64,000 nt of DNA, from the NCBI GenBank assembly GCA_037441425.1, contig JBBISF010000004.1, forward strand, positions 10,215 to 74,214. Direction: 5' to 3'. The stretch is from Verrucomicrobiia bacterium (GTDB lineage: Bacteria > Verrucomicrobiota > Verrucomicrobiia > Palsa-1439). Positions 23,478-55,882 of the stretch are shown piece after piece. Position 1 is the stretch's first letter, and every line of letters starts with the position of its first letter. Below the pieces are notes generated by a model. It did not search any database, had not been told where the DNA came from, and saw nothing but the letters and a program-made list of their open reading frames with translations. A program made the translations under genes and the position numbers.

Positions 23478-23566
23478 ATCCTTGGCGCGACGTGCGCAAG
23501 CTACATCACGCCGCCCACAAGCGTCAAGACGGGAAACCGCTTGTGCCCGCGGTGTTCCGGTTGTAC

Positions 23567-38243: not shown

Positions 38244-39151
38244 GGTCGCGGATGATTGTAGTGCGACAGTTTCCAATCCACCACGCTGAGCGGCCGGGCG
38301 ACCTGATCCTTGTAGGTCCGCGCCAGATAAATGCAAATGACCATCAGGAAGAACGCGACGTAGATAAAATCGAGCGCCACCAACCAGTGGAACTTGTCAT
38401 TGATGACCAACGCGATGTTCAGCGCGATCAGCAACGGGAACGCGTACACCGACAACCGCAGCGGGAACGTGGATGAGCTGAGGATGCCGGCCACGGCAAA
38501 GACGATGGCGCGCCAAAGATTGTAGTGGGTCTGGCCGATGATGCGTTTCTGCCGGGAGTAGGGGATGCCTTTGCGTTGGAACCCAACGTGGGCGACTTCG
38601 GTGCGCAGAAACGGGAACGTGGAATGGTTCGCCAAAATCGCGTCGCGCACCGGGGCGGAGACGAGAAAGAACTCCGCCATGTCGAGGACAATATCGCTGT
38701 CGGCGACCAGGCGGTTCAACCGGTAGAACGCCTTGCGCGCGAGTTGCCAGGGAAGCGGTTCAGGACGCTCGTCGCGCCGCCCATAGACGATGTCGTGGCC
38801 GGCTTCCCATTCGGCGATGAACTGGGGAATCATTTCCGGCGGGTCTTCGCAGTCCACGTCAATGATCGCCACCGCCGCGCCGCGCGCGTGGCGCAGACCG
38901 GTGGCGACGCTGGCTTCGTAGCCGAAATTGCGCGAGAGCGTCAGCACCTGCACCTGCGGGTTCTGCTCTCGGAGTTTGAGAATCGCCGACAACGTCCGGT
39001 CGGCGGAGCGGTTGTTGGTGAAGATCAACTCGAAGTCATACCGGTTGGCCAGCGGCGCGAGGGCCTTCTGCAACCGCTCATAAAACAACGGGATGGCTGT
39101 CTCTTCGTTGAACACCGGACAGACGATCGAAATCAACTGACGCTCGCTCAT
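38240..39151 (-). CDS. GtrB/ArnC-like GT2 polyprenol-phosphate glycosyltransferase (two C-terminal TM helices)
   Basis: ISIVCPVFNEE, DVDCEDPPE (DxD). Two TM helices at the C-terminus as in GtrB. ~304 aa. Confidence 0.75.
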   Translation of the reverse strand: MSERQLISIVCPVFNEETAIPLFYERLQKALAPLANRYDFELIFTNNRSADRTLSAILKLREQNPQVQVLTLSRNFGYEASVATGLRHARGAAVAIIDVDCEDPPEMIPQFIAEWEAGHDIVYGRRDERPEPLPWQLARKAFYRLNRLVADSDIVLDMAEFFLVSAPVRDAILANHSTFPFLRTEVAHVGFQRKGIPYSRQKRIIGQTHYNLWRAIVFAVAGILSSSTFPLRLSVYAFPLLIALNIALVINDKFHWLVALDFIYVAFFLMVICIYLARTYKDQVARPLSVVDWKLSHYNHPRP

Positions 39152-39930
39152 GATAGGTGTTGCCGCCACCAGTTTATCGTTTCGCGCAAGCCGGTGTCGA
39201 GATTGTAGCGAGGCCGCCAACCGGTGGCGAGCAACCGGGTGTTATCAGCCACGATAGGCAGCGGGTCGCCGGGAGCGTAGGGGCGCGCGCCAAACTTGAG
39301 CAGTTCCGGTCGTCCGATGATCGCGCCAATCTGACCGGCCAGCGCGCGGACGGTGATCGGCTGGCCGCTGCCGATGTTCACGGCCCCGGTGAGATTGCTT
39401 TCCGCGACGGCGACGATGGCCCGCGCAACATCCTCCACGTGCAAGAAGTCGCGGACCTGTTCGCCGGGGGTTAGTTCTGCCGGTTGGCCGCGCAGGAGTG
39501 ATTGAATGATGTACGGCACCAGCCGTCGCGGGTCTTCGCGCGGACCATATTGGTAGAACAACCGCGGCCAGGCAACTGGCGTGTCGAGTTGCTGGAGCTT
39601 CTCAAAGAGTTCCAGTTTGCATTGCGCGTAGAGCGTGGTGGATTCACGCTCGATACAGGTGCCAATGGCAACAAAACGTTGGGTGTTGACTTCCTGGGCC
39701 AAGCGAAGACTGGCGGTAACCCATTGCTGGTTCAGTGGTGAGTCGAGGTACTTACCGGGTTCGGCGTACCACGCGAGGTGAAGGCAGATATCGAACTGCG
39801 AACGCGGAAAACGGAAACCAGGCGAGAGCAGATCGCGGCCGAGGGTGGTCACTTCGTGACCGGCCTGTTCCAGTACAGCGGCGACGTGGAAACCGATAAA
39901 GCCGGTGGCGCCGGTGAGCAGGACTTTCAT
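39148..39930 (-). CDS. NAD(P)-dependent sugar epimerase/reductase (short RmlD-like 4-ketoreductase candidate)
   Basis: MKVLLTGATGFIGFHV Rossmann N-terminus. 260 aa. Coupled between the RmlC-like gene and the GT2 gene. Confidence 0.65.
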   Translation of the reverse strand: MKVLLTGATGFIGFHVAAVLEQAGHEVTTLGRDLLSPGFRFPRSQFDICLHLAWYAEPGKYLDSPLNQQWVTASLRLAQEVNTQRFVAIGTCIERESTTLYAQCKLELFEKLQQLDTPVAWPRLFYQYGPREDPRRLVPYIIQSLLRGQPAELTPGEQVRDFLHVEDVARAIVAVAESNLTGAVNIGSGQPITVRALAGQIGAIIGRPELLKFGARPYAPGDPLPIVADNTRLLATGWRPRYNLDTGLRETINWWRQHLS

Positions 39931-40436
39931 AGCAACGGCAGAGCTTGATCACGGGCAGAGACAGTCGGGTGGGGGATGGGCCACGGGATGGCCAGCTTGG
40001 GATCGTTCCAGCGGATGCCGCGCGCCAGTTCTGGGAAGTAGAAATTGGACATTTGGTAGAACACCTCGCAGTTGTCGGTGAGACATTGAAAACCATGCGC
40101 GTAGCCGGCCGGCGCGTAGAGTTGGCGGGGAGAATTGGCGGACAATTCAAACGCCTCCCATTTACCGGAGCGCACGTCCGCGATGACGTCCCAGATCGTG
40201 CCGGCAACGCAGCGGATCAGTTTGGTCTCGGGATGCGGCTCGGCTTGGAAGTGCAACCCGCGAATGGCGCCGCGCTGTTTGGTGAGCGTGGTGTTGCACT
40301 GCGGCCAATGGATGTTCAAGTTGTGCTCGGCGAATTCGCGTTCGCAATAGGTCCGGGCGAGGAAACCGCGTTCGTCAGCACGCGGTTCCAGATCAATCAG
40401 CCAGACACCCGGTAGTGACGTGGTGTGAAACTTCAT
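39927..40436 (-). CDS. dTDP/CDP-4-keto-6-deoxyhexose 3,5-epimerase (RmlC-like cupin)
   Basis: [30 protein letters not shown]...GLHFQ...HGF motifs. 169 aa. The ORF-track N-terminal extension is not credible (Arg/Pro-rich). Confidence 0.8.
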   Translation of the reverse strand: MKFHTTSLPGVWLIDLEPRADERGFLARTYCEREFAEHNLNIHWPQCNTTLTKQRGAIRGLHFQAEPHPETKLIRCVAGTIWDVIADVRSGKWEAFELSANSPRQLYAPAGYAHGFQCLTDNCEVFYQMSNFYFPELARGIRWNDPKLAIPWPIPHPTVSARDQALPLL

Positions 40437-41665
40437 ACAACCCGCGGCTCCGGAACGGGGATGATGAACTTGCCGCCGCGTTGTCGGTAGGCGGCTTGTT
40501 GCTGAAGAATCTCGTCGGCAAAGTTCCACGTGAGCAACAGGGTGTGGTCCGGCATCTGCGCCAACAACTGATCGGGGGCGAGGATGGGGATCCGGACACC
40601 CGGCATGTAACGGCCCTGTTTGTGTGGGCTGCGATCCACGACGAACTCGATGGTTTCGCGGCTGATGCCGCAGTAGTTGAGGAGCGTGCTGCCTTTGGCG
40701 GCGGCGCCGTAGGCGGCCAGCCGTTTGCCTTGGTGGCGGAGATCGGCGAGAAACCGGACGAGTTGGGCGCGGAGTTGTTCCACCCGGCGGGCGAAGTCGG
40801 CGAGGGAGTCCAGTCGGTTCACACGCCAAGCCGTTTCCTCGCGCAACAGGAGCGGGACGGATTCCCGGGTGCGTTGGTGGGATTCGCTGTGGACGAATTG
40901 GACGCGAAGTGAACCGCCGTGAATAGGGAGGCGTTCCACATCCAGCAGACGTAATCCGTGGCGCTGGGATAACCGGTCGAGCGCCGTCAGGGAGAAATAG
41001 CAGAGGTGTTCGTGGTAGATGGTGTCGAATTCAACGCGGTCAATGAGGTCTTTGAGGTAGGGAACTTCAAACTGGGCGACGCCTTCGTCTTTGAGCAGGA
41101 GCGCGACACCGCGCATGAGACCGTTGAGGTCGGCGACGTGGGCGAGCACGTTGTTGCCGATGATGACATCGGCCTGCCGGCGTTCGTTGCGCAGCTTGCG
41201 GGCGAGCGGTTCGCCAAAGAATTCGGCCAGGGTGGGGACGCCGCGTTCGGTCGCGACTTGGGCGATGTTGGTGGCCGGCTCAATGCCGAGCACGGGGATA
41301 CCGGCCGCGACAAAATTCTTCAGCAAGTAGCCGTCGTTGCTGGCGATTTCGATGACGAGGCTTTGAGGAGTCAGTTGCCGGGTGGCGATGAGTTTGGCGG
41401 CGCTGTCTTGGGCGTGCGCCAACATGGCGGCGGACGTGGAGGAGAAATAGAGGTATTCGCGAAACAGGATTTCCGGCGGCACGATCTCGGTGATTTGGAC
41501 AAGCGTGCAGTCGGGGCAAAACGCGAGGTCGAGAGGATAAACCGGCTCCGGGCGCGTCAGTTGGGCGGGGGTGAGATAGGAATTGGCGAGCGGCGTTTTG
41601 CCGAGTGACAGAACAACTTGTAGATTCTGTTTGCCGCAGGAACGACAGGTGTGACCGGTGGTCAT
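40433..41665 (-). CDS. NDP-hexose C-methyltransferase (TylC3-like: zinc-ribbon + class I MTase + C-methyltransferase C-terminal domain)
   Basis: CRSCG...CPDC zinc-binding N-domain, SAM-binding core, ~410 aa. ATGA overlaps on both sides. Confidence 0.7.
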
Positions 41666-42642
41666 GCGGTCGTCCCCAAGAACTGCCGGTACCAATCAAT
41701 CGTGCGCCGCAATCCGTCGTCGAGGGTGAACAATGGTTTCCAGTCGAGCACCCGGCGCGCCTTCGCCGCGCTGAGGTATTGCTGGCGGATTTCATGGATC
41801 GCTTCGTTGCGAACCTCCGGCTGAAGCGGGGAATTCATCAGGCCGAGGATGCGTTTCACGAGGTCCAGCACGGTGATCTGGATTTCGTTGGAGAAGTTGA
41901 ATGCCTGGCCGCGGAGCTTCGGGTTCTCGCCCAATTGTTCGGCCAACAACATATAGGCCGCCGCGCCGTCCTCGATGTAGAAGTAGTCGCGCACGAACTG
42001 ACCATCGGAGCGGATGAGGGGGCGTTCGCCGCGCAACACCGAGCGGATGGTGCCGGGTACAATGCGGTTCCAATTGAGATCGCCGCCGCCGAAGAAGTTC
42101 CCGCAGCGTGTGACGGCTACCGGCAAGTTGTAGGTAACGGCGTACGCCTGGGCGATGAGATCGCTGCAGGACTTGCTCACGTCGTAGGGATGCCGGCCTT
42201 GCAACGGCGTGTTCTCATCGTAGGGAAGTTTTTCCTGATCGCCATACGCTTTGTCGGATGACGCAAGCACGATCTGTTGGACGGTCGGGCTGCGCCGGCA
42301 AGCCTCCAGCAGCGACCATGTGCCGCCGATGTTGGTTTCAAAGGTGGAGACCGGATTGCGGTTGGCAATGGTGACGATTGTCTGCGCCGCGAGATGGATG
42401 ACCGTGGCGATTTCATATTCGCCAAGGATGCGTTCCAACAAGGTCTGATCCGTGATGTCGCCCCGGACGGTTTTCACTTGGTGAATGAGACCGGAGCGGA
42501 CGAGTTCGCTCTGCGGCACCCAGTCCCGGACGAGACAGACGACATCGGCACCGGCTTTCTGGAGGCGCGGTACGAGCCAACTCCCGACGAGACCGGTGGC
42601 ACCGGTGACAAACGTAGGACGATCACGCCAGAAGTTGTTCAT
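41662..42642 (-). CDS. rfbG: CDP-glucose 4,6-dehydratase
   Basis: [23 protein letters not shown] is a characteristic RfbG N-terminus. SDR-extended fold with YDVSK catalytic motif. Confidence 0.8.
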
Positions 42643-42645
42643 GGT

Positions 42646-43416
42646 TCAGCTCCACACCTTCCACGGGGCTTGGCTGCTTTGCCAGAGTGATTCGAGCGTC
42701 CGGGTGTCGCGCAACGTGTCCATGCACTGCCAGAAGTCATTGTGCCGGTAGGCGACGAGTTGCCGGTCGGCAGCCAATTTTTCCAACGGCTCGCGTTCAA
42801 AGACGGTCTGATCGCCGGCAATGTAGTCGAGCACTTGGGGTTCGAGGACGAAGTAACCACCGTTGATCCAGCCTTCGCCGATCTGCGGTTTTTCGGTGAA
42901 CTCTTTGACGAAATCGCCGTCGAATGTCAGCCCGCCAAACCGGGCGGGTGGCCGGACGGCGGTAATGGTCGCAAGTTTGCCGTGGCGACGATGGAATTCG
43001 AATAACCGGCGGAGATCAACGTTGGTCACGCCGTCGCCATAGGTCATGAGGAACGTTTCCTTACCGAGCAAACCGGCGAGACATTTGAGGCGGCCACCGG
43101 TTTGGGTTTGGTCGCCGGTATCCAGCAGGTGCACGAGCCAGTCTTCGCGTTCCTGAGCGTGCGTTTCCACGCGGCCTTTGCCGAGGTGGACAGTGAGATT
43201 ACTCTCCAGTTGATAGGACTCAATAAAGTAGCGTTTGATATGTTCGCCCTTATAGCCGAGCGCGAGAGCAAACTCTTTGAATCCGTGGTGGGCGTAGCTT
43301 TTCATGATATGCCACAGGATCGGCCGACCGCCGATCTCCACCATGGGTTTGGGTTTGATTTCGGTCTGTTCGGCCAAGCGCGTACCCAACCCACCGCATA
43401 GAATGACGACCTTCAT
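42646..43416 (-). CDS. rfbF: Glucose-1-phosphate cytidylyltransferase
   Basis: MKVVILCGGLGTRL...KPKPMVEIGGRPILWHIM. ~257 aa from ATG 43416. Confidence 0.85.
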   Translation of the reverse strand: MKVVILCGGLGTRLAEQTEIKPKPMVEIGGRPILWHIMKSYAHHGFKEFALALGYKGEHIKRYFIESYQLESNLTVHLGKGRVETHAQEREDWLVHLLDTGDQTQTGGRLKCLAGLLGKETFLMTYGDGVTNVDLRRLFEFHRRHGKLATITAVRPPARFGGLTFDGDFVKEFTEKPQIGEGWINGGYFVLEPQVLDYIAGDQTVFEREPLEKLAADRQLVAYRHNDFWQCMDTLRDTRTLESLWQSSQAPWKVWS

Positions 43417-43560
43417 TGGCAAATTAAGAAAGCCGGAGGCGCGGCGTCTTTGTTGATGTGGGTGCCACAACGAAGTTGGTAACCAGTTCTCACGGTTTTG
43501 CCAGCAGGTTTCTAGCATTCGGCTGGCGCTCGGTCAAGAATGGGACGCTTTACGATTTAA

Positions 43561-43806: not shown

Positions 43807-44307
43807 ATGACTAATGGCTCTAAAGTTTTTAATTGTGTCTGCATCCTGTCACTGAGCCTAGCATTGACTGGATGTCAGACAATCCGTAGCCCCGGCACAG
43901 CAAGCCAGTTTGCGGACAGCGTTAGGGAGACTCCCGTAGACGTGGTACGGGCCCATCTGTTGGCGATGCACGATCCGACGGTGTTTGAGTCGCTCGCCGC
44001 GCCGGTGGTGGGCATCTCAGGCGGTGAAGGTGCGGATCGTATTTGGTATCGCAACGCCGAGTTTACGGTCCGGCAACGTCAGGAAAATCCCGCGCCGCCG
44101 CACCGAGTGATCGACTTGCAGACACACTTCCTTGATAAGGCGCTGGCTGCCGTCATCGCGAGGTATACCACGGCGGATCGTTCGGTGACCTGTCGGGCTA
44201 TCTATACGCTCTCGCGTGAAAGTGGCGAATGGCGAATCGTGTCCCTTGTGTTTGAGACGCAGCTCACTCAGTTCCTCCACCGGGACCAATGCCGCGCGCG
44301 CGATTAA
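43807..44307 (+). CDS. Lipoprotein, hypothetical
   Basis: ATG after GAGGAACAATC. Lipobox LALTGC. Confidence 0.5.
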   Translation: MTNGSKVFNCVCILSLSLALTGCQTIRSPGTASQFADSVRETPVDVVRAHLLAMHDPTVFESLAAPVVGISGGEGADRIWYRNAEFTVRQRQENPAPPHRVIDLQTHFLDKALAAVIARYTTADRSVTCRAIYTLSRESGEWRIVSLVFETQLTQFLHRDQCRARD

Positions 44308-44428: not shown

Positions 44429-45097
44429 GTGTCCAGCATCCTCACAACAGCAACTTTGCAGGTGCGGGTCCTTGAGGTGCGCCCGCTGACCGAAGCGACC
44501 TATGTGCTGCGATTGGAACGGCAGGGTGTGGCGTTTCGGGCCGGGCAATCCATCACGCTGGGTGTCAGCCGGATGCGAGTCAATCGCGAATACACAATTT
44601 ATTCGGGGGAACAGGACGATTACATCGACGTGCTGATCCGAGAGATTCAAGGCGGCACGGTTTCAGTAGCCTTACGCCGCTGTCCCCCGGGTGAACTGCT
44701 GGAGTGCAACGGCCCGTTCGGTTCATTTGTCATTCCAGAGCCATCAGATCGGTTGCGAAAATACCTTTTTATCGCTTCCGGCACTGGCATTGCCCCATAC
44801 CATTCAATGGTCCGGACCCATCCTGAGCTTGATTACCGGATCATCCACGGGATTCGCAATGCGCGGGAACAGTATGACCTTGCGGACTACGACCATGCCC
44901 GTTATGTCGCTTGTGTGACCGGTGAACCCGGTGGCGATTTTTCCGGGCGCGTCACCGCCTATCTCCACCAACACCCGGTCGATCCCGGCAGCCACTGCTA
45001 TTTGTGCGGCAACGGTCGCATGTTGACGGCCGGCTACGAACTGCTCCGCGAACAAGGCGTGCCCAGCGACCAGATTCATCTGGAGGCGTTTTTCTGA
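44429..45097 (+). CDS. Ferredoxin-NADP reductase-like FAD/NAD(P)-binding oxidoreductase
   Basis: REYTIYS (RxYS FAD motif), FIASGTGIAP NAD(P) motif. 222 aa. GTG start. Confidence 0.65.
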   Translation: MSSILTTATLQVRVLEVRPLTEATYVLRLERQGVAFRAGQSITLGVSRMRVNREYTIYSGEQDDYIDVLIREIQGGTVSVALRRCPPGELLECNGPFGSFVIPEPSDRLRKYLFIASGTGIAPYHSMVRTHPELDYRIIHGIRNAREQYDLADYDHARYVACVTGEPGGDFSGRVTAYLHQHPVDPGSHCYLCGNGRMLTAGYELLREQGVPSDQIHLEAFF

Positions 45098-46653
45098 TGC
45101 GCGTGGCCATTTCGTATCCGCCGATAGTTAACGAGCTGGGCCAGAAGGCCATGGTCTCGCAGAACCGCAACGTCCAGTATTTCAAGACGCCGACGTATCT
45201 GTTGCCGGTGGTGCATGCGCAAGCGGCCACCTGGTTGCGTGATCTCGGTCACGAGGTGTACTGGGACGACGGCAATGCTCAATTGAAAACCTTTGCGCAG
45301 TGGTACCGCGATTTGCTGGCATGGCAACCGGACCTAGTGGTGTTCGAGAGCACAACCCCGGTCATGAAGTTTTACTGGCGGCTGATCCAGCGGCTCAAAC
45401 AAGACCGACCGGATATCATGATCGTTATGACCGGCTATCACTCGATGCGGATGCCGTTCGAGACGATGAACAAGTGTCCTGTGGACATTGTCTTGCGCAG
45501 TAATCACGTCGATTTCGTGCTCAGCAAATTGGTGCCGTTTATTACCACGCACCCGGACTGGCGCACCACCTGCGCTCTTGAAGGATTGTTTATTCGCACG
45601 GCCAACGGTGAGCAACGGCAGACCGGCAGTTTCAAGCAGATTGAGCCGCTCGACAATTCGCCTGATGTGGATCGTGACCTGGTCCAATGGCAGCGGTACG
45701 CGTACGAGAACGGCAATTTTCTGCGAACGCCCGGCACCTACGCCACGAGCGTTGTCCGCGATTGCACATTCGGTAAGTGCACCTTCTGCCGCTATAACGG
45801 TCCTGATCTTACGTTTTCGATGCGATCGGTCCAGCGCAGTCTCGACGAATACCAGCGACTCATCGAGCAATACGGCGTCCGCGAAATCTTTGATGATTCT
45901 GGCGTGTGGTACCGCGGCAAGGAAGCCCGCGAGTTTTGCGAGGGACTCATCGCCCGCGGGCTGCACCGAAAGGGTTGCTACTTCGGCCTGAACACACGGT
46001 TTGCCTACCTCGATGAGGAAACCATCCAGCTCATGGGCCAGGCGAATTTCCGGTTCGTGTTGCTTGGCTTGGAAGCGTGCGACGACGAGACGCTCAGCCG
46101 GTTGAACAAGGGGTATCAAGTTGTGGACGTTGAACAGAATCTGCGCTGGTTCACCAAGTACGGTCTGCATCCGCACCTGACCGTCATGGTCGGTTACTAT
46201 TGGCAGACGCAGCAACAACTGGATCAGACCGTCCAGACGGTCCGGCAATTTATGTTCCAGGGCCTCGCGCGGACGCTCCAAGTCACCATCTGTACCCCGC
46301 TGGATTTCACCCCTTACCACCAAGAATGCTTGGACCAGGGCGTTCTGCTCACGGACGACTACGACGACTTCGACATGAGCAAAGTCATCGTGAAAACGCC
46401 GATCCCACACGAGCGGCATTACGAGGCCATCCGTCAGATGTACGGGATTGCCTTTCATCCGAAATTTCTCGCACGGCAAATTGCTTTCCTTGCCTCAGGT
46501 CGCATTCGGGATTGGGAATTCTTGTTCACTTACGGTTGGCGAGCTTTACGCCGCGTGCGCCAACACATCTTCAACTTGACTCAGGCCCGCCAACTTCAAA
46601 AACCGGCCAGCGGTGATGCTCACCACGCCGACGAACCCGCGTTGAACTCGTGA
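45097..46653 (+). CDS. B12-binding (class B) radical SAM protein
   Basis: N-terminal cobalamin-binding-like domain. Cys cluster CTFGKCTFC (Cx4Cx2C variant). ~518 aa. TGATG overlap with the reductase gene. Confidence 0.7.
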   Translation: MRVAISYPPIVNELGQKAMVSQNRNVQYFKTPTYLLPVVHAQAATWLRDLGHEVYWDDGNAQLKTFAQWYRDLLAWQPDLVVFESTTPVMKFYWRLIQRLKQDRPDIMIVMTGYHSMRMPFETMNKCPVDIVLRSNHVDFVLSKLVPFITTHPDWRTTCALEGLFIRTANGEQRQTGSFKQIEPLDNSPDVDRDLVQWQRYAYENGNFLRTPGTYATSVVRDCTFGKCTFCRYNGPDLTFSMRSVQRSLDEYQRLIEQYGVREIFDDSGVWYRGKEAREFCEGLIARGLHRKGCYFGLNTRFAYLDEETIQLMGQANFRFVLLGLEACDDETLSRLNKGYQVVDVEQNLRWFTKYGLHPHLTVMVGYYWQTQQQLDQTVQTVRQFMFQGLARTLQVTICTPLDFTPYHQECLDQGVLLTDDYDDFDMSKVIVKTPIPHERHYEAIRQMYGIAFHPKFLARQIAFLASGRIRDWEFLFTYGWRALRRVRQHIFNLTQARQLQKPASGDAHHADEPALNS

Positions 46654-47663
46654 CGTCGTCCGGGGCATCCATCCTCATCGCCCTGCCGGCCGCGACGCGC
46701 TATTTGGACGAGTCCCTCGCCGCGCTCGAGCGCCAGACGGTTCGCGATTTTGAAGTCATCCTCTTGCCGGACGCGCCTTCGGGTCGGTCGTGGCCCGCGT
46801 GGTGCCGGGAAGTCCCCACCGGTCGGCGGCGCCCGGCCGAAAAACGCAATCGGGGTATCGCGGAAGCGCACGGGGCCATCATTGCGTTTCTCGATGACGA
46901 CGCGTGGCCGGTTGACCGGTGGCTGGAAGCGGCGCTGCCGCACTTCAATGATCCCGGCGTTGTCGGCGTCGGTGGTCCCGGCGCGACGCCGGCGCATGAT
47001 CCCTTCTGGGCACAACTCAGCGGGCGGGTATATGAAAATGTACTGGTTTCAGGTGGATACCGGTGTCGGTACCGGGCCGGCTCGGCGCGGGACGTGGACG
47101 ATTGGCCAAGCTGCAATTTCTTTGTGCGCACGGCAGTCGTCCGGCGGCTCCACGGTTTCCGCACCGACTATTGGCCCGGCGAAGACACCTACCTGTGTTT
47201 GGAACTGACGCAGACCCTCCGCCGGCGCATCGTCTATGAACCGCAGGCGCTGGTTTATCATCACCGGCGGGCGCTGTTTCTGCCGCATCTCCGGCAGATC
47301 GGCCGGTACGGACTGCATCGCGGCTATTTTGCCCGGCATTTTCCCAGTACCTCGCGGCGACTGAGTTACCTGATGCCTTCGCTATTGGTGTTGGGATTGG
47401 CGGGGGGCGCACTCGGCAGCGCGTTCCTGCCGGGGCTGCGCGGGCCCTATGTTACCGGGGTGGGATGTTACCTGTTGGCCACACTGGGCGCGGCGGTCTC
47501 GTCACGCCCGCACGTTTGGCTCTTCACCTGGTTCGGCATCATGGCGACGCATGTGGTGTACGGCGTGCGGTTCCTGATGGGGTATTTCTCCACCCGACTG
47601 CCCGGCAGCGTGCAGCGATTTGATCACCCATCAGAAGACGACCCGAATTTCGACCGTAAATAG
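46650..47663 (+). CDS. GT2-family glycosyltransferase with C-terminal membrane anchor
   Basis: ILLPD, FLDDDAWP (DxD), C-terminal TM helices. GTGA overlap with the radical SAM gene. Confidence 0.7.
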   Translation: MTSSGASILIALPAATRYLDESLAALERQTVRDFEVILLPDAPSGRSWPAWCREVPTGRRRPAEKRNRGIAEAHGAIIAFLDDDAWPVDRWLEAALPHFNDPGVVGVGGPGATPAHDPFWAQLSGRVYENVLVSGGYRCRYRAGSARDVDDWPSCNFFVRTAVVRRLHGFRTDYWPGEDTYLCLELTQTLRRRIVYEPQALVYHHRRALFLPHLRQIGRYGLHRGYFARHFPSTSRRLSYLMPSLLVLGLAGGALGSAFLPGLRGPYVTGVGCYLLATLGAAVSSRPHVWLFTWFGIMATHVVYGVRFLMGYFSTRLPGSVQRFDHPSEDDPNFDRK

Positions 47664-48457
47664 ACTATGCCGACGGCGAACCGCAGGCAGTACAACGCCA
47701 GCACGTGGATTGGACGGGAGAGGAAACGCTTCCATTTTCCCTGTTCGAGAAACACTCCAAAGTAACGGTACCAAAGCCCAAATTGTTTCTTAGTAATCGC
47801 GTCGCGCCCCCACTTGGTAAAGTACGTCGCGAAGTTCTGCGCGTAGTAAGCTTTCTTGCGGATGTACCGGCGAAAATCAAACTTGCCTTCGTTGTGCAGT
47901 AGATGTGTGTCGGCCAACGCAAATCGCCCCCTTACAGCCAGTCGCCGGTCGAGATCCCAGTCTTCCGGCCCACACAGGTTGGGGTCATAACCGCCGATCT
48001 CAACGAATGTTGCCCGGTGGATGAAGCGCACGGCGTCAATCGGCGTCGTGTTATAAAACGACCGTTCAAAATTCTGCACGCTGATCCAGAAGCTTGTGCC
48101 CACGATCTTTTCCGGGATGAACGCGGCGATTACATCCGGTACCGCCACGACGGCTAGGCATGCGCGTACTAGCGTTGGCGCAACCATCATGTCGGCGTCG
48201 AGAAACAGCAGAAACTCCCCGGTGGCTTGTGCCGCGCCAAAATTGCGCTGCGCCGAGCGTTCGGGACCGATCTGATAGAAGCGAACACCATATTTGCTAG
48301 CGACGGCAGACGTGTCGTCGGTGGAGAAGTTGTCCACGACGATGATTTCCAGTTGTTCCTGTGGGTAATCCAGAGCGCGAACTGCGGCGAGGCAGTCGTC
48401 GAGAAACCGTCCCGCATTGCGCGTGGGAACAATGATGCCAACCCGCGGTTCAGCCAT
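47624..48457 (-). CDS. GT2-family glycosyltransferase
   Basis: VGIIVPTRNAGRFL, VVDNFSTDDT, LFLDADMM motifs. Confidence 0.7.
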   Translation of the reverse strand: MAEPRVGIIVPTRNAGRFLDDCLAAVRALDYPQEQLEIIVVDNFSTDDTSAVASKYGVRFYQIGPERSAQRNFGAAQATGEFLLFLDADMMVAPTLVRACLAVVAVPDVIAAFIPEKIVGTSFWISVQNFERSFYNTTPIDAVRFIHRATFVEIGGYDPNLCGPEDWDLDRRLAVRGRFALADTHLLHNEGKFDFRRYIRKKAYYAQNFATYFTKWGRDAITKKQFGLWYRYFGVFLEQGKWKRFLSRPIHVLALYCLRFAVGIVYLRSKFGSSSDG

Positions 48458-48484
48458 GAACACAGCGAATACAATCCCGAGGCC

Positions 48485-49732
48485 ATGCTGGCAATCATTT
48501 TATCGCATGGCCTTGGTCGGCCTGCTCTGGTACAAAGTTTATCTATGCACAAAGAGGGGGCGCAGAGCTTGCAAGAAGTGCGTGTGGTGATAGTGCTGCA
48601 CTACTACGCCACGGGGCCCGGTCAGGAACTACATGGGTGGCTGGTTGGAAAGCGAATCGCCGAAGCAGCGCTGTTGGAACACCCGTTCCCTTATTCCGAT
48701 CGCTCGTTCGCCCGTTGGGAGCGCTGCTCTCCTGACGGCAAGCTCGCCGGGCAAAATTTTCCGAGGTGGGTTCGACCCATGTTTCTGCGCTACACGTTGG
48801 ATTTTATCCGCACGCTGCGTCTGGTTCTGCGCGCCGGCGTCCGGTATGACTATTATGTTGGAAATGGTGCGTTTAACACTGCACCCGGTATCATTCTGCG
48901 GTGGCTCGGCAAAGTTCACCACGTGGTTCTCTACACGATTGACTACGCGCCTCAGGCGGGTGGCAATCGCCTCTACGAAATGGCGTACCGGTGGATCGAT
49001 CGTTTTTGTTGCCGGCGAGCGGATGTGATTTGGAATCTATCGCCGCGGATGCAAGAGGCCCGACAGAGAGACGGTTTGCAGGTGCGATTCTGTGCACCGG
49101 TAGTGATCGTGCCCCACGGTACCCATGCGACAGCACTGGCCTGTCTATTGCCTGGAAACCCTGACCCGTTGCGGGTTGCTTTCATGGGGCACGTACAAGA
49201 GAAGTCCGGTTTGCAACTTTTCCTCGAAGTCATGCCGGAGTTAGCGCAGGAACTTCCCGGGTTACGGCTCGAGGTGTTTGGTGATGGCCCTTATCTGCCC
49301 CGATTGCGTGAGCAGGTGATCATGCGAGGGCTCACTTCGTCCGTTGCCTTTCATGGGTTTATTCCAGACCACGTCGAATTGGAACGTCAATTGGCACGTT
49401 GTGGGGTGGGGTTGGCGCTCTACCATCCCGAGACGGCCGGGTTTTCTTGGTTGGCTGATCCCGGTAAACCGAAGGTTTACCTCGCTTGCGGATTGCCGGT
49501 CATCATCACGAATGTTCCGTCCGTTGCCGAGGAAATCGAGCGTCGCAAAGCCGGGATCTCGATCCGGTTCGATGTTGCCGAGCTGCGAATGGCCCTGCAT
49601 GCCGCGATCTGCAACCACGGTATGTACCGAGCCAACGCTTTGGCGATGGCCAAGGAATTCAATTGGGACTGCGTCTTTGATCGAGCCTGGCAGGAGACGC
49701 AGGCACTAGTCAAACGGGAGCAGGAACGATGA
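48485..49732 (+). CDS. GT4-family glycosyltransferase
   Basis: C-terminal Glycos_transf_1-like region (E-x7-E context, GLPVIITNV). Start ATG 48485 after GAGG; alternative 48548. Confidence 0.7.
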   Translation: MLAIILSHGLGRPALVQSLSMHKEGAQSLQEVRVVIVLHYYATGPGQELHGWLVGKRIAEAALLEHPFPYSDRSFARWERCSPDGKLAGQNFPRWVRPMFLRYTLDFIRTLRLVLRAGVRYDYYVGNGAFNTAPGIILRWLGKVHHVVLYTIDYAPQAGGNRLYEMAYRWIDRFCCRRADVIWNLSPRMQEARQRDGLQVRFCAPVVIVPHGTHATALACLLPGNPDPLRVAFMGHVQEKSGLQLFLEVMPELAQELPGLRLEVFGDGPYLPRLREQVIMRGLTSSVAFHGFIPDHVELERQLARCGVGLALYHPETAGFSWLADPGKPKVYLACGLPVIITNVPSVAEEIERRKAGISIRFDVAELRMALHAAICNHGMYRANALAMAKEFNWDCVFDRAWQETQALVKREQER

Positions 49733-51387: not shown

Positions 51388-53835
51388 TCAGGCGGACCGT
51401 CGCTTGTCGGCTACGGCTTGTAGCCCAGCAACACCAACGATGACCGATGCGAAACCGAGCGCAACCAAGTGGATGTAGATTGCCGTGGCTGGGCTTTGGT
51501 AACGAACCACTACTTCAGAGTGTCCGGCGGGAACAGGGACCGCATAAAGAATCAGGTCGGCGCGCACGGGCGCGACCGGGTGTCCGTTGACCGCTGCGTG
51601 CCAGTTTGCGTCGTAGCGGTCGTTGATCAATAGATAACCGGGCGTGGGGGCTTCGACCGCGGCTTCGATCCGGTTACCGGAGTAGCGTTGCAGATGAACG
51701 GTTCCCACCGCGTTGCCGGTCCCGCTCGGGGCGGTTGGGTGGTCGAGTAACAGCGTGCGGCGCGGGTCCCAATCGGCGGACGCTAGTCGGCGACTCAGTT
51801 CAGACTGATTATCGAAAACTTCGATTCCCGGCACAAATGTCGCCTTGGACAGGTAGTTCTTCAGAGTCACCACCGCGTGGGTCGCCTGCCAGGTATCGGT
51901 AACAGCGATCACCGTCAGGTCGTCTAATTTCGTGCCTTGCGCCTGGAAGAGCGCCACGCCGGTGATGTTGGTCTGCAATTCGGTCACGCGCTGAAGCTGG
52001 CTTAAGCCGGCAGCCGGTAGTGCCAGATACTTGACGCCGGCCAGTTGCCAGAGACGGATCGGATTGCTCTCCAACGCACTGAAGAACGCGAGGTAGTTGT
52101 CGGGCATTCGCGACGAGGCGGGAATATCAAGGGATGCAATCCGGTAGTACGGAAACACCGCGCTCAGGTAGTAGTGCAACAGACCATCTTGCGCGAGGAG
52201 TTTGACGCGCGCCGGTTCTGGATCGGCGCGGAGGGTTTCGATCAGCGGGTTGCTCCGGTACGCCGCGCGGAAGTTGAACGGTTCCAGATAGTGCGTGTGC
52301 ACCCAAAACATCTGGGCGACAACCAAGCCCGCCAACACGGGAATGCGGGCTGACGGTTTCGCCGCCACAAACCAGAGCAGCCCCACGACCGCCACAGTCA
52401 CCCCGGCGGCAAGACGGACAACACCCAGCGCGGCGGCAATTTCCGCCCGGCTATACCCTTGCGGCGCCAGCGTCTGCGGCAACCACGAATCCGCTCCCAG
52501 TGCCGCCAACAACACCAGGCCCGCCGCCGCGCTGACACCGGTCAGCAACCAGCGCCACCGTTGATTGGGTGAACCGTCCAGCCACATCTGCACACCATAG
52601 GCCGCCAGCACGGTCAGACAAAATCCGCCCGGCACCATGAATTTCAGCGGATTGCGCCACGTACCCATGTACGGGAGTTTGTAGAACAACCAGTAGAATG
52701 GCGCATACCGACCCAGCGCCAACAGGTAGCAGATGACCAAAGCCACGGTGAAGAACCGACCGTAGAACCGGCTATCGGTGTCGAGTAACTCCTCTGTGGT
52801 TGCATCCTTTTGGGCGGGCCGATTTCTGCGCCATAGCATCCACGCCCCGGCCAAGGCGAACACCAAAGCCACGGTGCCGAAGCTGTTGGCACTGATGGAA
52901 AAATTGCGGAATCCTTGATGGTCTTGCGCCCAGCCGGCTTGTCGGCCAATCCGTCCCCAGTACGGCCCATCCGGATCACCGCTGCGCCAGCCGAAAAAGC
53001 CGGGCACGAGATAATCCAAAGTCTCCGCGAACGGCAGACTCCACTGCGTCGCCCAATTCCAATGCTCTTGAGGGTTATCGCTGGCCACCTGTTTGACGCC
53101 GGTGATTTGCGTTTCAAGCATCGTTTGGAGCGTCGGCAACGCCACCAGTGCTGACATTCCGATAACCGCCAGCAACCGGCCGCCAAGCATCAGACTTTCC
53201 CGTCGCTCCCGCCGTAGCGCACGACCGATACCGGCCAGGAACAACGCGCCGACCAGCAAGGCCACCAACATTCCATGGTCGGGCTGGAGACAGATGTTCA
53301 TCCCTAAAATTGCGCCACAGACAATCGCCGCCCACCAATTCCGACTACGGATCGCCCGCAGCGCGGCACCGACGGCCAACGGCATCAGAACTAGCAGCGC
53401 CATGGGGCCAAAATGACCTGAGTAGATATTGCTAAGCAACGGTCCCTGCCACCCGTAGATCAACCCGCCGATGACGGCTGCCGGGCGCGCCAGTTTCAAT
53501 TCGCGCAACAGCCAATAGGCCGTCCCGACAGCCAGTGCGCCGCAGAGCGGATAAAATAGCGTGAAAAACCACCACACCGGCAAGTGCGCGAGGAGTGAAG
53601 TCGGCGTCAACGGTACCGGCAAATTCGGAAACCCGAGCCAATAATCATAACTCATGAACCCTTGCGGCGGGAACTGAAACCGCATCGCGCGATAGCTGCC
53701 CGGTGTGACGTCATTGGTCAGCGGAACGAATTGGCCGCCGGAGAAAAAGTAGCAGAGCCACAACTGCAACAGAAGCGTTCCGCCAGCAGCCAGTAACAGC
53801 CAGCGATTATTATGTTGCCCAACCGGTTTCTTCAC
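51388..53835 (-). CDS. Large polytopic membrane protein, YfhO-like GT-C glycosyltransferase candidate (copy 2)
   Basis: 815 aa. Many N-terminal TM helices, large soluble domain, terminal TM. 4-nt overlap with the upstream GT2. Confidence 0.45.
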   Translation of the reverse strand: MKKPVGQHNNRWLLLAAGGTLLLQLWLCYFFSGGQFVPLTNDVTPGSYRAMRFQFPPQGFMSYDYWLGFPNLPVPLTPTSLLAHLPVWWFFTLFYPLCGALAVGTAYWLLRELKLARPAAVIGGLIYGWQGPLLSNIYSGHFGPMALLVLMPLAVGAALRAIRSRNWWAAIVCGAILGMNICLQPDHGMLVALLVGALFLAGIGRALRRERRESLMLGGRLLAVIGMSALVALPTLQTMLETQITGVKQVASDNPQEHWNWATQWSLPFAETLDYLVPGFFGWRSGDPDGPYWGRIGRQAGWAQDHQGFRNFSISANSFGTVALVFALAGAWMLWRRNRPAQKDATTEELLDTDSRFYGRFFTVALVICYLLALGRYAPFYWLFYKLPYMGTWRNPLKFMVPGGFCLTVLAAYGVQMWLDGSPNQRWRWLLTGVSAAAGLVLLAALGADSWLPQTLAPQGYSRAEIAAALGVVRLAAGVTVAVVGLLWFVAAKPSARIPVLAGLVVAQMFWVHTHYLEPFNFRAAYRSNPLIETLRADPEPARVKLLAQDGLLHYYLSAVFPYYRIASLDIPASSRMPDNYLAFFSALESNPIRLWQLAGVKYLALPAAGLSQLQRVTELQTNITGVALFQAQGTKLDDLTVIAVTDTWQATHAVVTLKNYLSKATFVPGIEVFDNQSELSRRLASADWDPRRTLLLDHPTAPSGTGNAVGTVHLQRYSGNRIEAAVEAPTPGYLLINDRYDANWHAAVNGHPVAPVRADLILYAVPVPAGHSEVVVRYQSPATAIYIHLVALGFASVIVGVAGLQAVADKRRSA

Positions 53836-54545
53836 TTGTTAACCTCGCTCCGTCGAACCGCGCGCCACGTGCGCCAGGTGTCGCGGAAAATCTCGGCAAT
53901 CGCGCGCCAGCCCACGGCGCTGCCAAATTTCATCGTGTGATTGACCACCACCGGCGCCTCGGCCATGCGGGCGCCCAGTTTCACCAAGTGGACCAGCAAT
54001 TCAAGATCGAAGGCAAAGCCGGTCAGCTTGGTGTTGGCCAGCGCTTCGGTCAATAGTTCGCGCCGGACCAGTTTCAGACCCGTCTGCGTGTCGCGGACCG
54101 GCAACCCGAACAGACATTTCACCAGCCGGTAGTAGCCCCAACTGTATAGCCGCCGCAGCGCGGGATACTCGACGTTGCTGTCCGGGTGCATCTTGCTGCC
54201 GATGACGGCGTCGGCGTTGTGGGTTTTCTGCAGAATCAGGAACAACTCGATTTGCTCCGGTGGCAGGTCTAAGTCGGCGTCGAGAAAGATCACAAACTCG
54301 CCCCGCGCGGCGCGGGTGCCCTGGCGCAACGCCTCGCCCTTGCCGGCGTGCGGCAGATGCAGCACCCGGACTTCGGGAAGCTCGGCCGCCGCCGCGTCCA
54401 GCGCGGCCGGTGCGTCGTCCGTGCTGCCGTCGTCCACCGCCAGAATCTCAAATGGCCCCAAGGGACGTAACACGCCGGCCGTGTGCCGGAGATTCACCAA
54501 CACGTTCGGGCCTTCATTATAGACGGGCATGACGACGGACAACAT
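53832..54545 (-). CDS. GT2 polyprenol-phosphate sugar synthase (DPM1/CsbB-like, soluble)
   Basis: LSVVMPVYNEG, AVDDGSTDD, IFLDADLD motifs. 237 aa. Confidence 0.75.
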   Translation of the reverse strand: MLSVVMPVYNEGPNVLVNLRHTAGVLRPLGPFEILAVDDGSTDDAPAALDAAAAELPEVRVLHLPHAGKGEALRQGTRAARGEFVIFLDADLDLPPEQIELFLILQKTHNADAVIGSKMHPDSNVEYPALRRLYSWGYYRLVKCLFGLPVRDTQTGLKLVRRELLTEALANTKLTGFAFDLELLVHLVKLGARMAEAPVVVNHTMKFGSAVGWRAIAEIFRDTWRTWRAVRRSEVNK

Positions 54546-55815: not shown

Positions 55816-55882
55816 ATCGGCCTGACTGTGTAAGCCAAAACCATTGCCGCCGCCAGAGTTTTCGTGTACAAGCTGGCCCACC

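Follow-up and report, generated by a model that had tools for sequence, protein, structure and literature searches.

We propose that the FNR-like gene, the radical SAM (rSAM) gene, and the glycosyltransferase gene that lie end to end in the window (the whole 64,000-nucleotide stretch analyzed here) encode an electron-supplied radical-modification cassette acting on a carrier-linked sugar, a model built on sequence comparison to which we assign a probability of roughly 0.6. The 222-aa FNR-like protein would transfer hydride from NAD(P)H to FAD and then hand electrons one at a time to the rSAM protein's [4Fe-4S] cluster, either directly or via housekeeping ferredoxin or flavodoxin, sustaining reductive SAM cleavage and any further one-electron step in each turnover. 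The rSAM protein would act by radical chemistry on an unactivated sugar carbon, probably while the sugar is still on its polyprenyl-phosphate carrier at the inner membrane face. Assembly of this carrier-linked sugar would fall to the membrane-anchored GT2 enzyme of the cassette (GT2c) and a DPM1/ArnC-like GT2 encoded at 53,832 to 54,545, and GT-C-type (YfhO-like) enzymes would then move the modified sugar to the surface glycan.

Pairing of the FNR-like and radical SAM genes

The cassette reads on the forward strand and comprises the FNR-like gene (44,429 to 45,097; 222 aa, GTG start), the rSAM gene (45,097 to 46,653; 518 aa, ATG start), and the GT2c gene (46,650 to 47,663; 337 aa, GTG start at 46,650). 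As read from the sequence, a GGAGG at 45,082 to 45,086 lies 10 nt 5' of the rSAM ATG, whose A is also the last base of the FNR-like gene's TGA stop (TTCTGATGCG) in the overlap TGATG at 45,095 to 45,099. The GT2c start in turn overlaps the rSAM stop (GTGA, 46,650 to 46,653). We placed the rSAM start at 45,097 and not at the upstream GTG at 45,004 because all homologues begin M[KR][IV]AISYPP. ORF coordinates and Pfam matches bore out both the overlaps and the gene identities given in the earlier sequence-only reading, and the TTCTGATGCG junction (TGATG) recurs in four further loci (L042, L022, L015, and L006). Four-base overlaps are frequent in operons and unremarkable alone; the feature that exceeds chance is the conservation of the FNR-rSAM gene order. 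In 47 independent loci, spread over about ten phyla, the FNR gene lies directly upstream of the rSAM gene and on its strand, with a median gap of 28 nt and a TGATG overlap in 5 of these loci; among evaluable genome loci, this placement was seen in 19 of 20. In a clade of rSAM proteins with 34 to 37% identity, the position of the FNR gene is occupied in 4 of 6 loci by a gene for a small ferredoxin (Fer4_13). When the FNR family itself was the starting point, 64 of the 69 metagenome loci that were evaluable after dereplication had a neighboring rSAM gene. Since members of this family are almost always encoded beside an rSAM enzyme, the FNR-like protein is probably the built-in electron supplier of its neighbor. 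The earlier suggestion of a self-contained redox pair is therefore the best supported of the ideas raised by that reading, resting on near-universal adjacency and the ferredoxin swap in the sister clade.

The partners of the FNR family are more varied than the same reading implied by presenting the reductase as the dedicated partner of a B12 enzyme. Among 72 dereplicated loci, the FNR gene lies upstream of MiaB/MtaB in 34 and upstream of the rSAM gene studied here in 26, and it is divergent from MoaA in 2 loci and from LipA in 2 others. The members adjoining MiaB/MtaB, MoaA, and LipA are 45 to 50% identical, the gene for a paralogue overlaps the start of RlmN, and the identities of the rSAM neighbors scored above NCBIfam trusted cutoffs. 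Because the family adjoins these enzymes, and a paralogue adjoins RlmN, the FNR-like protein is, judged by its gene neighborhoods, a general rSAM-associated reductase that is not specific to B12 or glycans. Its most likely target is the [4Fe-4S] cluster, with no role specific to cobalamin. The semiquinone/hydroquinone couple of FNR enzymes is usually too weakly reducing for rSAM clusters without ferredoxin or flavodoxin, so direct transfer is uncertain, and both the direction and the directness of electron transfer are what we infer.

The FNR-like protein matches FAD_binding_6 (PF00970; 45.1 bits) and NAD_binding_1 (PF00175; 28.7 bits), both above the Pfam cutoffs. The motifs that mark the FNR superfamily (R-x-Y-S/T, G-x-x-S/T, GTGIAP, CG, and a C-terminal aromatic residue) are all present, and REYT(IYS), GGTVS, SGTGIAP, YLCGN, and a C-terminal FF are kept throughout the family. 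With both domains and every motif in place, the protein belongs by these features to the superfamily, and its flavin and pyridine-nucleotide motifs are intact. No Fe-S, ferredoxin, or flavodoxin domain was found in it with Pfam or NCBIfam. Assignment to the named Fpr, Fre, BenC, MmoC, or PyrK families was rejected: scores were far below the equivalog cutoffs, the best being BenC (86 bits against 430), MmoC (72.5 against 500), Fpr (42.7 against 390), and Fre (31 against 230), and only the reductase half aligned; BenC, MmoC, and PyrK membership additionally demands an attached Fe-S domain. Relatives in the PDB are the P450 reductase 5ogx, the FAD domain of MmoC, and Fpr.

An operon for CDP-glucose synthase and 4,6-dehydratase lies 1 kb upstream, and E3 enzymes belong to the FNR superfamily. 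The FNR-like protein might on these grounds be an E3 (AscD/DdhD)-type reductase of the neighboring CDP-deoxyhexose pathway and not an rSAM partner. However, it lacks the N-terminal plant-type [2Fe-2S] (Fer2) domain, and no gene for an E1/DegT-type (PMP-dependent) dehydrase was found between 32.9 and 57 kb. Moreover, the FNR gene tracks the rSAM gene and not the sugar pathway, adjoining it amid GDP-mannose, other, or no pathways, and its family also sits beside MiaB, LipA, and MoaA. These context data effectively refute an E3 identity.

Affiliation of the radical SAM protein and the cobalamin question

The rSAM protein matches Radical_SAM (PF04055) over aa 219 to 380 with 47.8 bits against a cutoff of 29.5. 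Its AF2 model (pLDDT 89.4) has an N-terminal five-strand Rossmann fold (about aa 1 to 160), a barrel (about aa 213 to 400) in which Foldseek supports the partial TIM-barrel fold, and a C-terminal helical region (aa 438 to 501); the hydrophobic moment indicates an amphipathic helix at aa 470 to 487. This domain layout is of class B type, and the fold is modeled with confidence. We found more than 1,400 homologues, the best 120 of which are 71 to 82% identical. The protein is 67 to 83% identical across about ten phyla, compared with only 35 to 57% for the FNR-like protein and GT2c, a difference that the whole model leaves unaccounted for. The distribution of the family is patchy and HGT-like, and it includes CPR bacteria. 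As an equivalog of BchE (107 bits against a cutoff of 481), HpnJ (95 against 578), HpnR (58 against 650), PhpK (55 against 600), or AprD4 (31 against 500), the protein was rejected, all NCBIfam scores being far too low; by these profiles, it matches no named family and belongs to an unnamed one.

The cluster-binding motif, C223-TFGK-C228-TF-C231 (RDCTFGKCTFC; 45,763 to 45,789, forward strand), is of the form Cx4Cx2C, one residue longer than the canonical Cx3Cx2C. This spacing was kept in 18 of 18 family sequences and is invariant in both the main clade and a 36%-identical clade, as the sequence-only reading of a genuine variant would have it; wider relatives have Cx3Cx2C, Cx6 to Cx18, or no remaining cysteines. 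The motif aligns with the cluster motifs of AprD4 and queuine lyase, the latter (6p78) having the same Cx4Cx2C spacing, and the cysteines do therefore align with radical SAM cores. Foldseek neighbors of the model were AprD4, MgmA, OxsB, TsrM, CysS, and TokK, with the top matches all rSAM enzymes. AprD4 ranked first in a profile search against the PDB (E = 5e-10) and matched by fold with E = 5e-20, a target-normalized TM of 0.76, and 16 to 17% identity. Of the solved structures, the diol dehydratase AprD4 and the B12-dependent methylase MgmA are the nearest relatives.

The sequence-only reading took the enzyme to be B12 dependent. The match to the B12-binding domain (PF02310; 29.8 bits, E = 5.7e-7) falls just below the cutoff of 32.1, and relatives score above it, at 34 to 40 bits; searched alone, the N-terminal domain retrieved no solved B12 domain. 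Known cobalamin tail-binding motifs are G/A-x-S/T-x-X in the beta3-alpha3 loop, Gly(-Gly) in beta4, and Gly-Glu in alpha5 (PMC9204698). In the rSAM protein, the beta3 loop has the sequence F-E-S-T-T-P, in which E84 and P88 are invariant, and beta4 has V-M-T-G113-Y-H115, in which neither G113 nor H115 varies across 37 sequences. No GE motif was found in the main clade, where the beta5-alpha5 region is R-S-N-H-V-D-F; the sister clade has GGDYDF in this region. With the cysteines aligned to rSAM cores and the B12-binding signature marginal, yet present, neither of the two findings that would count against the sequence-only reading was obtained outright. Dependence on B12 is left with the Rossmann fold on its side and, on the other, the subthreshold PF02310 score, the failed search for a solved B12 domain, the missing GE, and AprD4 as the closest structure.

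A cobalamin-dependent class B methylase or epimerase acting on a sugar carbon, with the FNR-like protein reducing both the cluster and cob(II)alamin, is a tentative reading, somewhat short of even odds. The Rossmann-plus-rSAM architecture and the PF02310 E value fit it, as do relatives above the Pfam cutoff, and the best full-length profiles are of B12 type (BchE, HpnJ, HpnR, and RiPP C-methyltransferases). MgmA, TsrM, CysS, and TokK are structural neighbors, Gly113 in beta4 is invariant, the beta3-alpha3 loop carries an E-S/T-x-S/T-P segment similar to the downstream Cbl motif, and the locus is rich in methylated-sugar genes. Set against these are the incomplete domain and motif evidence, AprD4 as the top solved relative, and the two nearest named families, neither of which contains methylases: BchE is a cyclase, and HpnJ is a proposed ring-contraction enzyme. 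The family is also present in CPR bacteria, which rarely make corrinoids, and no cobalamin riboswitch was found in the window. The FNR family serves B12-free rSAM enzymes too, so its presence is uninformative on cobalamin.

AprD4 does not need cobalamin, and its rank as best match by both profile and fold suggests another, improbable identity, that of a cobalamin-independent radical dehydratase or deoxygenase removing the sugar hydroxyl beside the abstraction site. The FNR-like protein would then give two electrons in each turnover, one used in cleaving SAM and the other in quenching the product radical. Viperin, which receives its electrons from an FNR-superfamily enzyme, makes a parallel demand. 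Both proteins have noncanonical cysteine spacing (AprD4 aligned as C-PYP-C-RFY-C), and the incomplete cobalamin motifs agree with this proposal. However, the NCBIfam AprD4 score of 31 bits against 500 covers the rSAM core only, identity is 16 to 17%, and no conserved AprD3-like ketoreductase is found beside the pair, the SDR genes of these loci resembling ordinary NDP-sugar enzymes. For the reaction of the proposed cassette, we infer a range of types: cobalamin-dependent C-methylation is the foremost candidate, though short of an even chance; another rearrangement, a ring contraction, or an epimerization is possible; and cobalamin-independent deoxygenation or dehydration is unlikely. The C-methylation or epimerization first suggested is in this way reduced to one option among several.

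Glycosyltransferase partners and the glycan locus

GT2c has a GT-A domain that matches Glycos_transf_2 (PF00535) with 41.9 bits against a cutoff of 23.3 and carries a DDD motif (FLDDDAWP); PF00535 and DxD together place it in GT2. Hydropathy indicates two or three C-terminal membrane segments (aa 241 to 316). It was rejected as an equivalog of MftF (94 bits against 280), EpsD (47 against 370), and AglG (35 against 440). Orthologues of GT2c (35 to 57% identical) accompany the rSAM gene within the locus in 8 of 11 genome loci with complete flanks; among metagenome loci, the figure is 12 of 29. Most GT2c homologues are fused to an N-terminal GT2 domain resembling polyprenyl-phosphate glycosyltransferases. 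In the window, a short GT2 of 237 aa (53,832 to 54,545, reverse strand) resembles DPM1, ArnC, and AglJ; its NCBIfam matches, to ArnC, AglJ, PpgS, and dolichyl-phosphate hexose transferase, are subthreshold. Compared with the fused GT2-GT2c proteins of loci L021 and L010, it shares 48% and 38% identity, respectively, with their N-terminal domains, which makes it the probable split-off partner of GT2c. The gene order GT2(ArnC-like)-GT2c-FNR-rSAM recurs, the amphipathic C-terminal helix of the rSAM protein agrees with a glycan link, and the substrate of the cassette is likely a polyprenyl-phosphate-linked sugar made by these partner GT2s. Fused GT2-GT2c genes often have no FNR-rSAM pair nearby, so a glycan or lipid-linked substrate is a majority association only.

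The surrounding LPS or O-antigen-like locus (32,897 to 55,950) bears out the glycan setting claimed earlier. It encodes two YfhO-like GT-C proteins (34,718 to 37,357, forward strand, and 51,388 to 53,835, reverse strand), an operon leading from CDP-glucose to a 3-C-methyl-6-deoxyhexose (37,302 to 43,518, reverse strand), and a Wzx-like protein (54,559 to 55,950, reverse strand) that clusters with Polysacc_synt proteins of other loci. FkbM methyltransferase, GT9 heptosyltransferase, GT2, GT4, and methyltransferase genes are also present. In three Lentisphaerales loci, the FNR-rSAM pair instead lies amid unrelated RibD, GFO/IDH/MocA, Sir2, and S41 peptidase genes, with no glycosyltransferase nearby. 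It is conceivable, if decidedly improbable, that glycan loci are a secondary setting and that the pair acts on a conserved nonglycan component of the cell, for which the polyprenol carrier itself, a glycerolipid of the membrane, or some further housekeeping molecule would be candidates. The 67 to 83% identity of the rSAM protein across about ten phyla suggests an invariant substrate, the Lentisphaerales pairs stand alone in nonglycan contexts, some genomes have the fused GT2-GT2c gene beside GpsA, PlsY, or acyltransferase genes, and the other partners of the FNR family are housekeeping rSAM enzymes. However, most fully flanked loci are glycan loci with GT2c, Wzx-like, and GT-C genes, and the patchy, HGT-like spread better fits an accessory surface trait.

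Significance and relation to known systems

For most rSAM enzymes, the electron donor used in the cell is not established or is simply presumed, which is a practical obstacle to reconstitution. An FNR family hard-wired beside at least five unrelated rSAM classes is a candidate dedicated NAD(P)H-driven activator and would be ready for coexpression in heterologous hosts with MiaB, LipA, MoaA, RlmN, and class B enzymes. The 518-aa rSAM protein, at 67 to 83% identity in an unnamed family with no known product, points to an uncharacterized, strongly constrained radical step linked to lipid-carried surface sugars. Were C-methylation or deoxygenation of a carrier-linked sugar true, it would be a new kind of reaction in envelope glycan biosynthesis. 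More speculatively, and on balance unlikely in full, the short FNR family could be a general, so far unrecognized bacterial "radical SAM reductase" that docks directly on its coencoded client and, with electrons from NAD(P)H, reduces the SAM cluster, needing neither ferredoxin nor flavodoxin, its subfamilies having coevolved with each client (MiaB/MtaB, RlmN, LipA, MoaA, and the class-B-like enzyme). The client in the window would then alter a polyprenyl-phosphate-linked sugar by a radical reaction of a new kind, for example, C-methylation or carbocycle formation, a step with no known counterpart in bacterial surface-glycan assembly.

A related system is that of yeast, in which Cbr1-Dph3 feeds Dph1/Dph2 and Elp3. 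We found no description of the FNR-rSAM pairing in the literature searched, where the nearest precedent is human CYB5R3 and viperin (2026). CYB5R3, an FAD-only FNR-superfamily reductase, reduces the cluster of human viperin (RSAD2) directly (PMC13592299). The likeness lies in a small FAD-only reductase with PF00970 and PF00175 that would carry electrons singly from NAD(P)H to the [4Fe-4S] cluster of an rSAM enzyme, in a partnership that needs both proteins to be brought together. However, CYB5R3 is a general ER reductase, distant in sequence and not coencoded with viperin, whereas the bacterial pairing, known from genes alone, is written into operons with overlapping genes and extends to several rSAM classes. 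The E. coli flavodoxin/Fpr system likewise runs from NADPH through an FNR-type FAD enzyme to an rSAM cluster, and Fpr is a detectable relative. In contrast to the present family, which scores 42.7 against the Fpr cutoff of 390, is encoded with its client, and has no flavodoxin gene in the cassette, Fpr is a shared housekeeping enzyme that acts via flavodoxin.

AprD4/AprD3, which deoxygenate apramycin at C3', share with the cassette an N-terminal Rossmann domain, noncanonical cysteine spacing, and, under the proposed model, a sugar substrate and an NAD(P)H-dependent partner. AprD4 differs in its Cx3Cx3C motif (against Cx4Cx2C), its 16 to 17% identity, and its family model score (31 of 500 bits), and AprD3 does not donate electrons but works on the product as a ketoreductase. 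The partner GT2s resemble AglJ/AglG and ArnC/GtrB, which load a sugar on polyprenyl phosphate and then extend it, and the locus encodes GT-C proteins like the YfhO/ArnT-type transferases, although all scores fall below the family cutoffs; we know of no three-component glycosylation system that includes a radical SAM step. Class B enzymes (TokK, CysS, TsrM, OxsB, MgmA, Fom3, and GenK) have the same domain order and fold as the rSAM protein, but the latter misses every equivalog model widely (107 of 481 bits for BchE and 95 of 578 for HpnJ), lacks the GE cobalamin-tail motif, and is subthreshold for PF02310; to our knowledge, none of the class B systems has a coencoded FNR. The best full-length profile scores are those of BchE and HpnJ. 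In hopanoid synthesis, the GT2 enzyme HpnI joins a sugar to a lipid as its head group and HpnJ then acts on that sugar, and HpnI/HpnJ would parallel the GT2-plus-rSAM arrangement described here.

The gene trio and its glycan locus

ORF calls, Pfam searches and the sequence itself recovered everything that the sequence-only reading had described here: three genes, their overlaps and a Cx4Cx2C motif. ORF1 (44429-45097, + strand) encodes a 222-aa FNR-type flavoprotein (FNR) with FAD_binding_6 and NAD_binding_1 domains above the Pfam thresholds. ORF2, on the same strand, encodes the radical SAM enzyme (rSAM). As listed, ORF2 opens at GTG 45004; all homologues in the alignment start with M[KR][IV]AISYPP, and the true start is therefore ATG 45097, giving a protein of 518 aa. 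This ATG shares one base with the ORF1 stop codon (TGATG) and is preceded by GGAGG 10 nt upstream. The protein scored 47.8 bits for Radical_SAM, had a B12-binding score slightly below threshold (29.8 versus 32.1 bits; E 5.7e-7), and carries the cluster motif C223-x4-C228-x2-C231. ORF3 (GT2c; 46650-47663, +) encodes a 337-aa GT2 glycosyltransferase that carries a DDD motif and, near its C terminus, two or three membrane segments; its GTG start overlaps the ORF2 stop as GTGA. A promoter and terminator scan yielded no signal above shuffled expectation, and Rfam detected no riboswitch across the window, only three tRNAs.

The last 40 nt of GT2c (47624-47663) overlap, tail to tail, with a second GT2 gene on the opposite strand (47624-48463, -). 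The predicted TTG start of a GT4 gene (48227-49732) falls in a region that this second GT2 gene also covers, and the GT4 start therefore probably lies further downstream. Directly upstream of the FNR gene, a predicted 166-aa lipoprotein is encoded (43807-44307, +), with a signal peptide and an LTGC lipobox. It had no match in Pfam or NCBIfam, and its gene was found on one short Logan contig (L001) and was not conserved in the other loci.

A glycan locus spanning roughly 23 kb (32.9-56 kb) surrounds the trio. The genome is Gram-negative, and the window encodes BamA, ClpB and GlnE outside this locus. The locus includes a GT9 heptosyltransferase gene, further GT2, GT4 and methyltransferase genes, a Wzx-like gene, and a CDP-sugar operon (37302-43518, -). 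The operon encodes glucose-1-phosphate cytidylyltransferase (369 bits, above the cut-off), CDP-glucose 4,6-dehydratase, a TylC3-type NDP-hexose C-methyltransferase, a 3,5-epimerase, a reductase, a PgfS/ArnC-like GT2 and a methyltransferase. Its product would be a CDP-activated 6-deoxy-3-C-methyl-hexose resembling a vinelose-type branched sugar. Neither a DegT/E1-type dehydrase nor a PEP mutase is encoded in the glycan locus, and we rejected the idea that the FNR serves the neighboring CDP-sugar pathway as an E3/AscD enzyme. Two large YfhO-like GT-C membrane proteins (34718-37357, +; 51388-53835, -) and two GT2s resembling polyprenyl-phosphate glycosyltransferases (38240-39220, -; 53832-54545, -) suggest that the locus holds two three-component (GtrB/YfhO-type) periplasmic glycosylation branches. 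Elsewhere in the window, one ORF (23354-25237, +) joins a trypsin-like protease domain to a WD40 beta-propeller; the neighboring genes (21902-23431, -; 25194-27728, -) encode an FHA-domain protein and a HEAT-repeat protein, respectively.

Linkage of the FNR family to radical SAM enzymes

The linkage between the FNR and rSAM genes is the strongest result of our analysis. Of the 20 genome loci that could be evaluated, 19 had the FNR gene as the immediate same-strand upstream neighbor of the rSAM gene; in the twentieth it lay 1.7 kb away. When genome and metagenome loci were pooled, the adjacency recurred in 47 independent cases, the two genes lying a median of 28 nt apart, and the junction TTCTGATGCG was identical in 5 of these 47.

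The FNR homologues form a distinct family of approximately 215 to 240 aa consisting of the two FNR domains alone. Lookup by FNR placed it upstream of the present rSAM in Wildermuthbacteria and another genome. Members also lie directly upstream of MiaB and MtaB in cultured Ancylomarina and in Bacteroidales MAGs, and an FNR paralogue overlaps the start of RlmN. We took the best 80 loci from a metagenome scan with the FNR alignment and dereplicated them at 90% to 72 clusters. An rSAM gene adjoined the FNR gene in 64 of the 69 evaluable clusters, with client identities above the NCBIfam trusted cut-offs: 34 of the 72 precede a MiaB-type methylthiotransferase, 26 precede the present rSAM, and four are divergent from their client (MoaA in two, LipA in two). 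Five clusters had no rSAM gene within the available flank, and three were too short to evaluate. The FNRs were about 45% identical across different clients, compared with about 54% where the client was the same. The linkage to MiaB, MoaA, LipA, RlmN and the present rSAM thus indicates that the FNR family is a reductase associated with radical SAM enzymes generally and is not tied to cobalamin or glycans. The earlier proposal of a self-contained redox pair is therefore well supported by the adjacency in genomes, in the pooled cases and in the FNR clusters, and the earlier interpretation as a whole is supported in part. Repair of an auxiliary cluster was rejected as the role of the FNR, since RlmN and the present rSAM lack such a cluster. 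Neither the present rSAM family nor any FNR family encoded alongside radical SAM enzymes was described in the literature searched, an absence that is no proof of novelty.

No FNR-rSAM fusion was used as evidence, and none occurred among the top 120 FNR homologues or the 47 loci. The sole candidate Rosetta-stone case was P0151, a 332-aa fragment in which the FNR C terminus runs in frame into the rSAM N terminus (…KSFFRNNVMKIAISYPP…). This read-through could be a natural fusion; its 3' end diverges as if frameshifted, and it may be an assembly error. In two Wildermuthbacteria loci (L035 and L036, 10730-12159), genes for an AbiEii-type toxin and a 201-aa partner are inserted between the FNR and rSAM genes, splitting an otherwise contiguous pair.

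A highly conserved enzyme of class-B type

A search of 5.8 billion proteins returned more than 1400 matches to the window rSAM, of which the best 120 were 71 to 82% identical and came from Verrucomicrobia, Kiritimatiellae, Burkholderiales (including cultured Polynucleobacter wuianus), Lambdaproteobacteria and an archaeal MAG. Scanning species-representative genomes extended the family, at 67 to 77% identity, to Nitrospinae, Lentisphaerae, Gammaproteobacteria, Leptonemataceae, Glassbacteria and Gemmatimonadales, and revealed a sister clade of 34 to 37% identity in CPR bacteria and some Gammaproteobacteria MAGs. In four of six sister-clade loci, a single-cluster ferredoxin gene (Fer4_13, E 2e-9) occupies the FNR position. 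The partners encoded in the main-clade loci are far less identical (FNR, 38 to 55%; GT2c, 35 to 57%), which argues that the rSAM is under unusually strong constraint.

No named family fits the rSAM, the top NCBIfam scores being BchE (107 of 481) and HpnJ (95 of 578). A PDB profile search ranked AprD4 first (E 5e-10), followed by the glutamine methylase MgmA, queuine lyase and OxsB; a single-sequence search found queuine lyase only and was uninformative beyond the motif alignment. Foldseek with an AlphaFold model (pLDDT 89.4) returned AprD4, MgmA, OxsB, TsrM, CysS and TokK. These matches show the predicted architecture to be of class-B type, with a Rossmann domain, an rSAM barrel and a helical C terminus. 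The alignment showed Cx4Cx2C to be invariant in the main and sister clades, and the only invariant cysteines are C223, C228, C231 and C411. Queuine lyase has the same spacing, in contrast to the Cx3Cx3C of AprD4; more distant relatives show Cx3Cx2C, carry insertions as long as 18 residues or lack the cysteines.

We compared the rSAM with cobalamin motifs defined from OxsB, TsrM and TokK (PMC9204698). The invariant glycine on beta-4 is kept (G113), the beta3-alpha3 loop has an E-S/T-x-S/T-P segment, and the very long beta1-alpha1 loop bears an invariant SQNR. The Gly-Glu at alpha-5 is absent, and the N-terminal 185 residues alone matched no solved B12 domain. On balance, we lean slightly toward cobalamin binding by this enzyme.

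In several relatives of 33 to 42% identity (P0126, P0129, P0130, P0139, P0141 and P0169), inteins interrupt the cluster motif (corresponding to window nt 45763-45789) precisely at its first or third cysteine, and most of these inteins have a LAGLIDADG homing-endonuclease domain; without its intein, P0126 would read RDC-x18-CTFC. In five full-length relatives from alignment A2 (P0149, P0152, P0158, P0162 and P0163; 25 to 30% identical), the N-terminal domain and the overall length are preserved but every cysteine of the cluster motif is gone; these proteins may be non-catalytic paralogues.

The glycan link and a proposed reaction

Of 11 genome loci with complete flanks, 8 encode a GT2c orthologue, as do 12 of 29 metagenome loci. 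The GT2c gene closely follows the rSAM gene in the window, L002, L012 and L039 and closely precedes the FNR gene in L005, L007, L009, L013 and L021. Most GT2c homologues are 570 to 590 aa long, with GT2c fused behind a GT2 domain like ArnC, AglJ, PpgS and dolichyl-phosphate hexose transferases. The counterpart of this N-terminal domain is encoded separately in the window (53832-54545). On the model of AglJ and AglG, this GT2 and GT2c would load polyprenyl phosphate with a sugar and then extend it; a single-sequence PDB search with GT2c gave only a weak, uninformative match to GalT1. The glycan link is weakened because the fused GT2-GT2c gene is also encountered well away from any FNR-rSAM pair, and because three Lentisphaerales loci hold the pair in unrelated surroundings. 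The link is thus frequent and not obligatory.

On three unrelated contigs, the fused gene adjoins glycerolipid genes encoding GpsA, PlsY and a two-domain acyltransferase (L121, 6149-9770; L123, 8001-10731; L124, 5051-10518), and it may be linked to the synthesis of membrane lipids or glycolipids. Four loci carry, beside the FNR-rSAM pair, a gene for a membrane protein of 150 to 180 aa with conserved DxDH, HxWE and HxxID (L010, 8711-9193; L018, 1722-2189; L023, 2283-3283; L024, 6720-7720). This family had no Pfam match and may be a metal-dependent membrane hydrolase. In Nitrospinae glycan loci, the conserved enzyme is accompanied by two or three extra class-B-like paralogues with about 24 to 26% identity to the window rSAM (L005, 16051-17748 and 20776-21510; L008, 3019-4545 and 8367-9935; L009, 17168-18643; L007, 1906-3003), a hint that a single glycan undergoes several radical modifications.

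In Polynucleobacter wuianus (GCA_018881935.1; L002, 8585-16076), the trio is flanked by genes for a CDP-alcohol phosphatidyltransferase, a cytidylyltransferase-PEP mutase fusion, a phosphonopyruvate decarboxylase-like TPP enzyme and an Fe-ADH, a set resembling the Fom1/Fom2/FomC-like 2-hydroxyethylphosphonate pathway. The glycan of this locus is therefore probably phosphonate decorated. A Fom3-like phosphonate methylase was rejected as the general function of the rSAM, since phosphonate genes are missing from the window and all other loci, where the enzyme is still about 72% identical.

Our analysis shows the linkage and the folds; the chemistry that follows is inferred. NAD(P)H would reduce the FAD on the FNR, from which single electrons would pass to the rSAM cluster, directly or via a housekeeping carrier. 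SAM cleavage would then produce a 5'-deoxyadenosyl radical that takes hydrogen from a sugar carbon of a carrier-linked intermediate at the membrane, a location that the amphipathic C-terminal helix of the rSAM fits. The outcome could be methyl transfer from methylcobalamin, loss of a neighboring hydroxyl or rearrangement, and the GT-C enzymes of the locus would deliver the modified sugar. All three outcomes would use about two electrons per turnover, so a co-translated reductase would be useful.

The main value of these findings lies in the general association of the FNR family with radical SAM enzymes and in an extremely conserved enzyme outside the named families. The published precedent closest in kind is human viperin, to which CYB5R3, an FAD-only enzyme of the FNR superfamily, delivers electrons (2026; PMC13592299). 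The bacterial pair joins two known kinds of protein, a radical SAM enzyme of class-B type and an FNR-superfamily electron donor.
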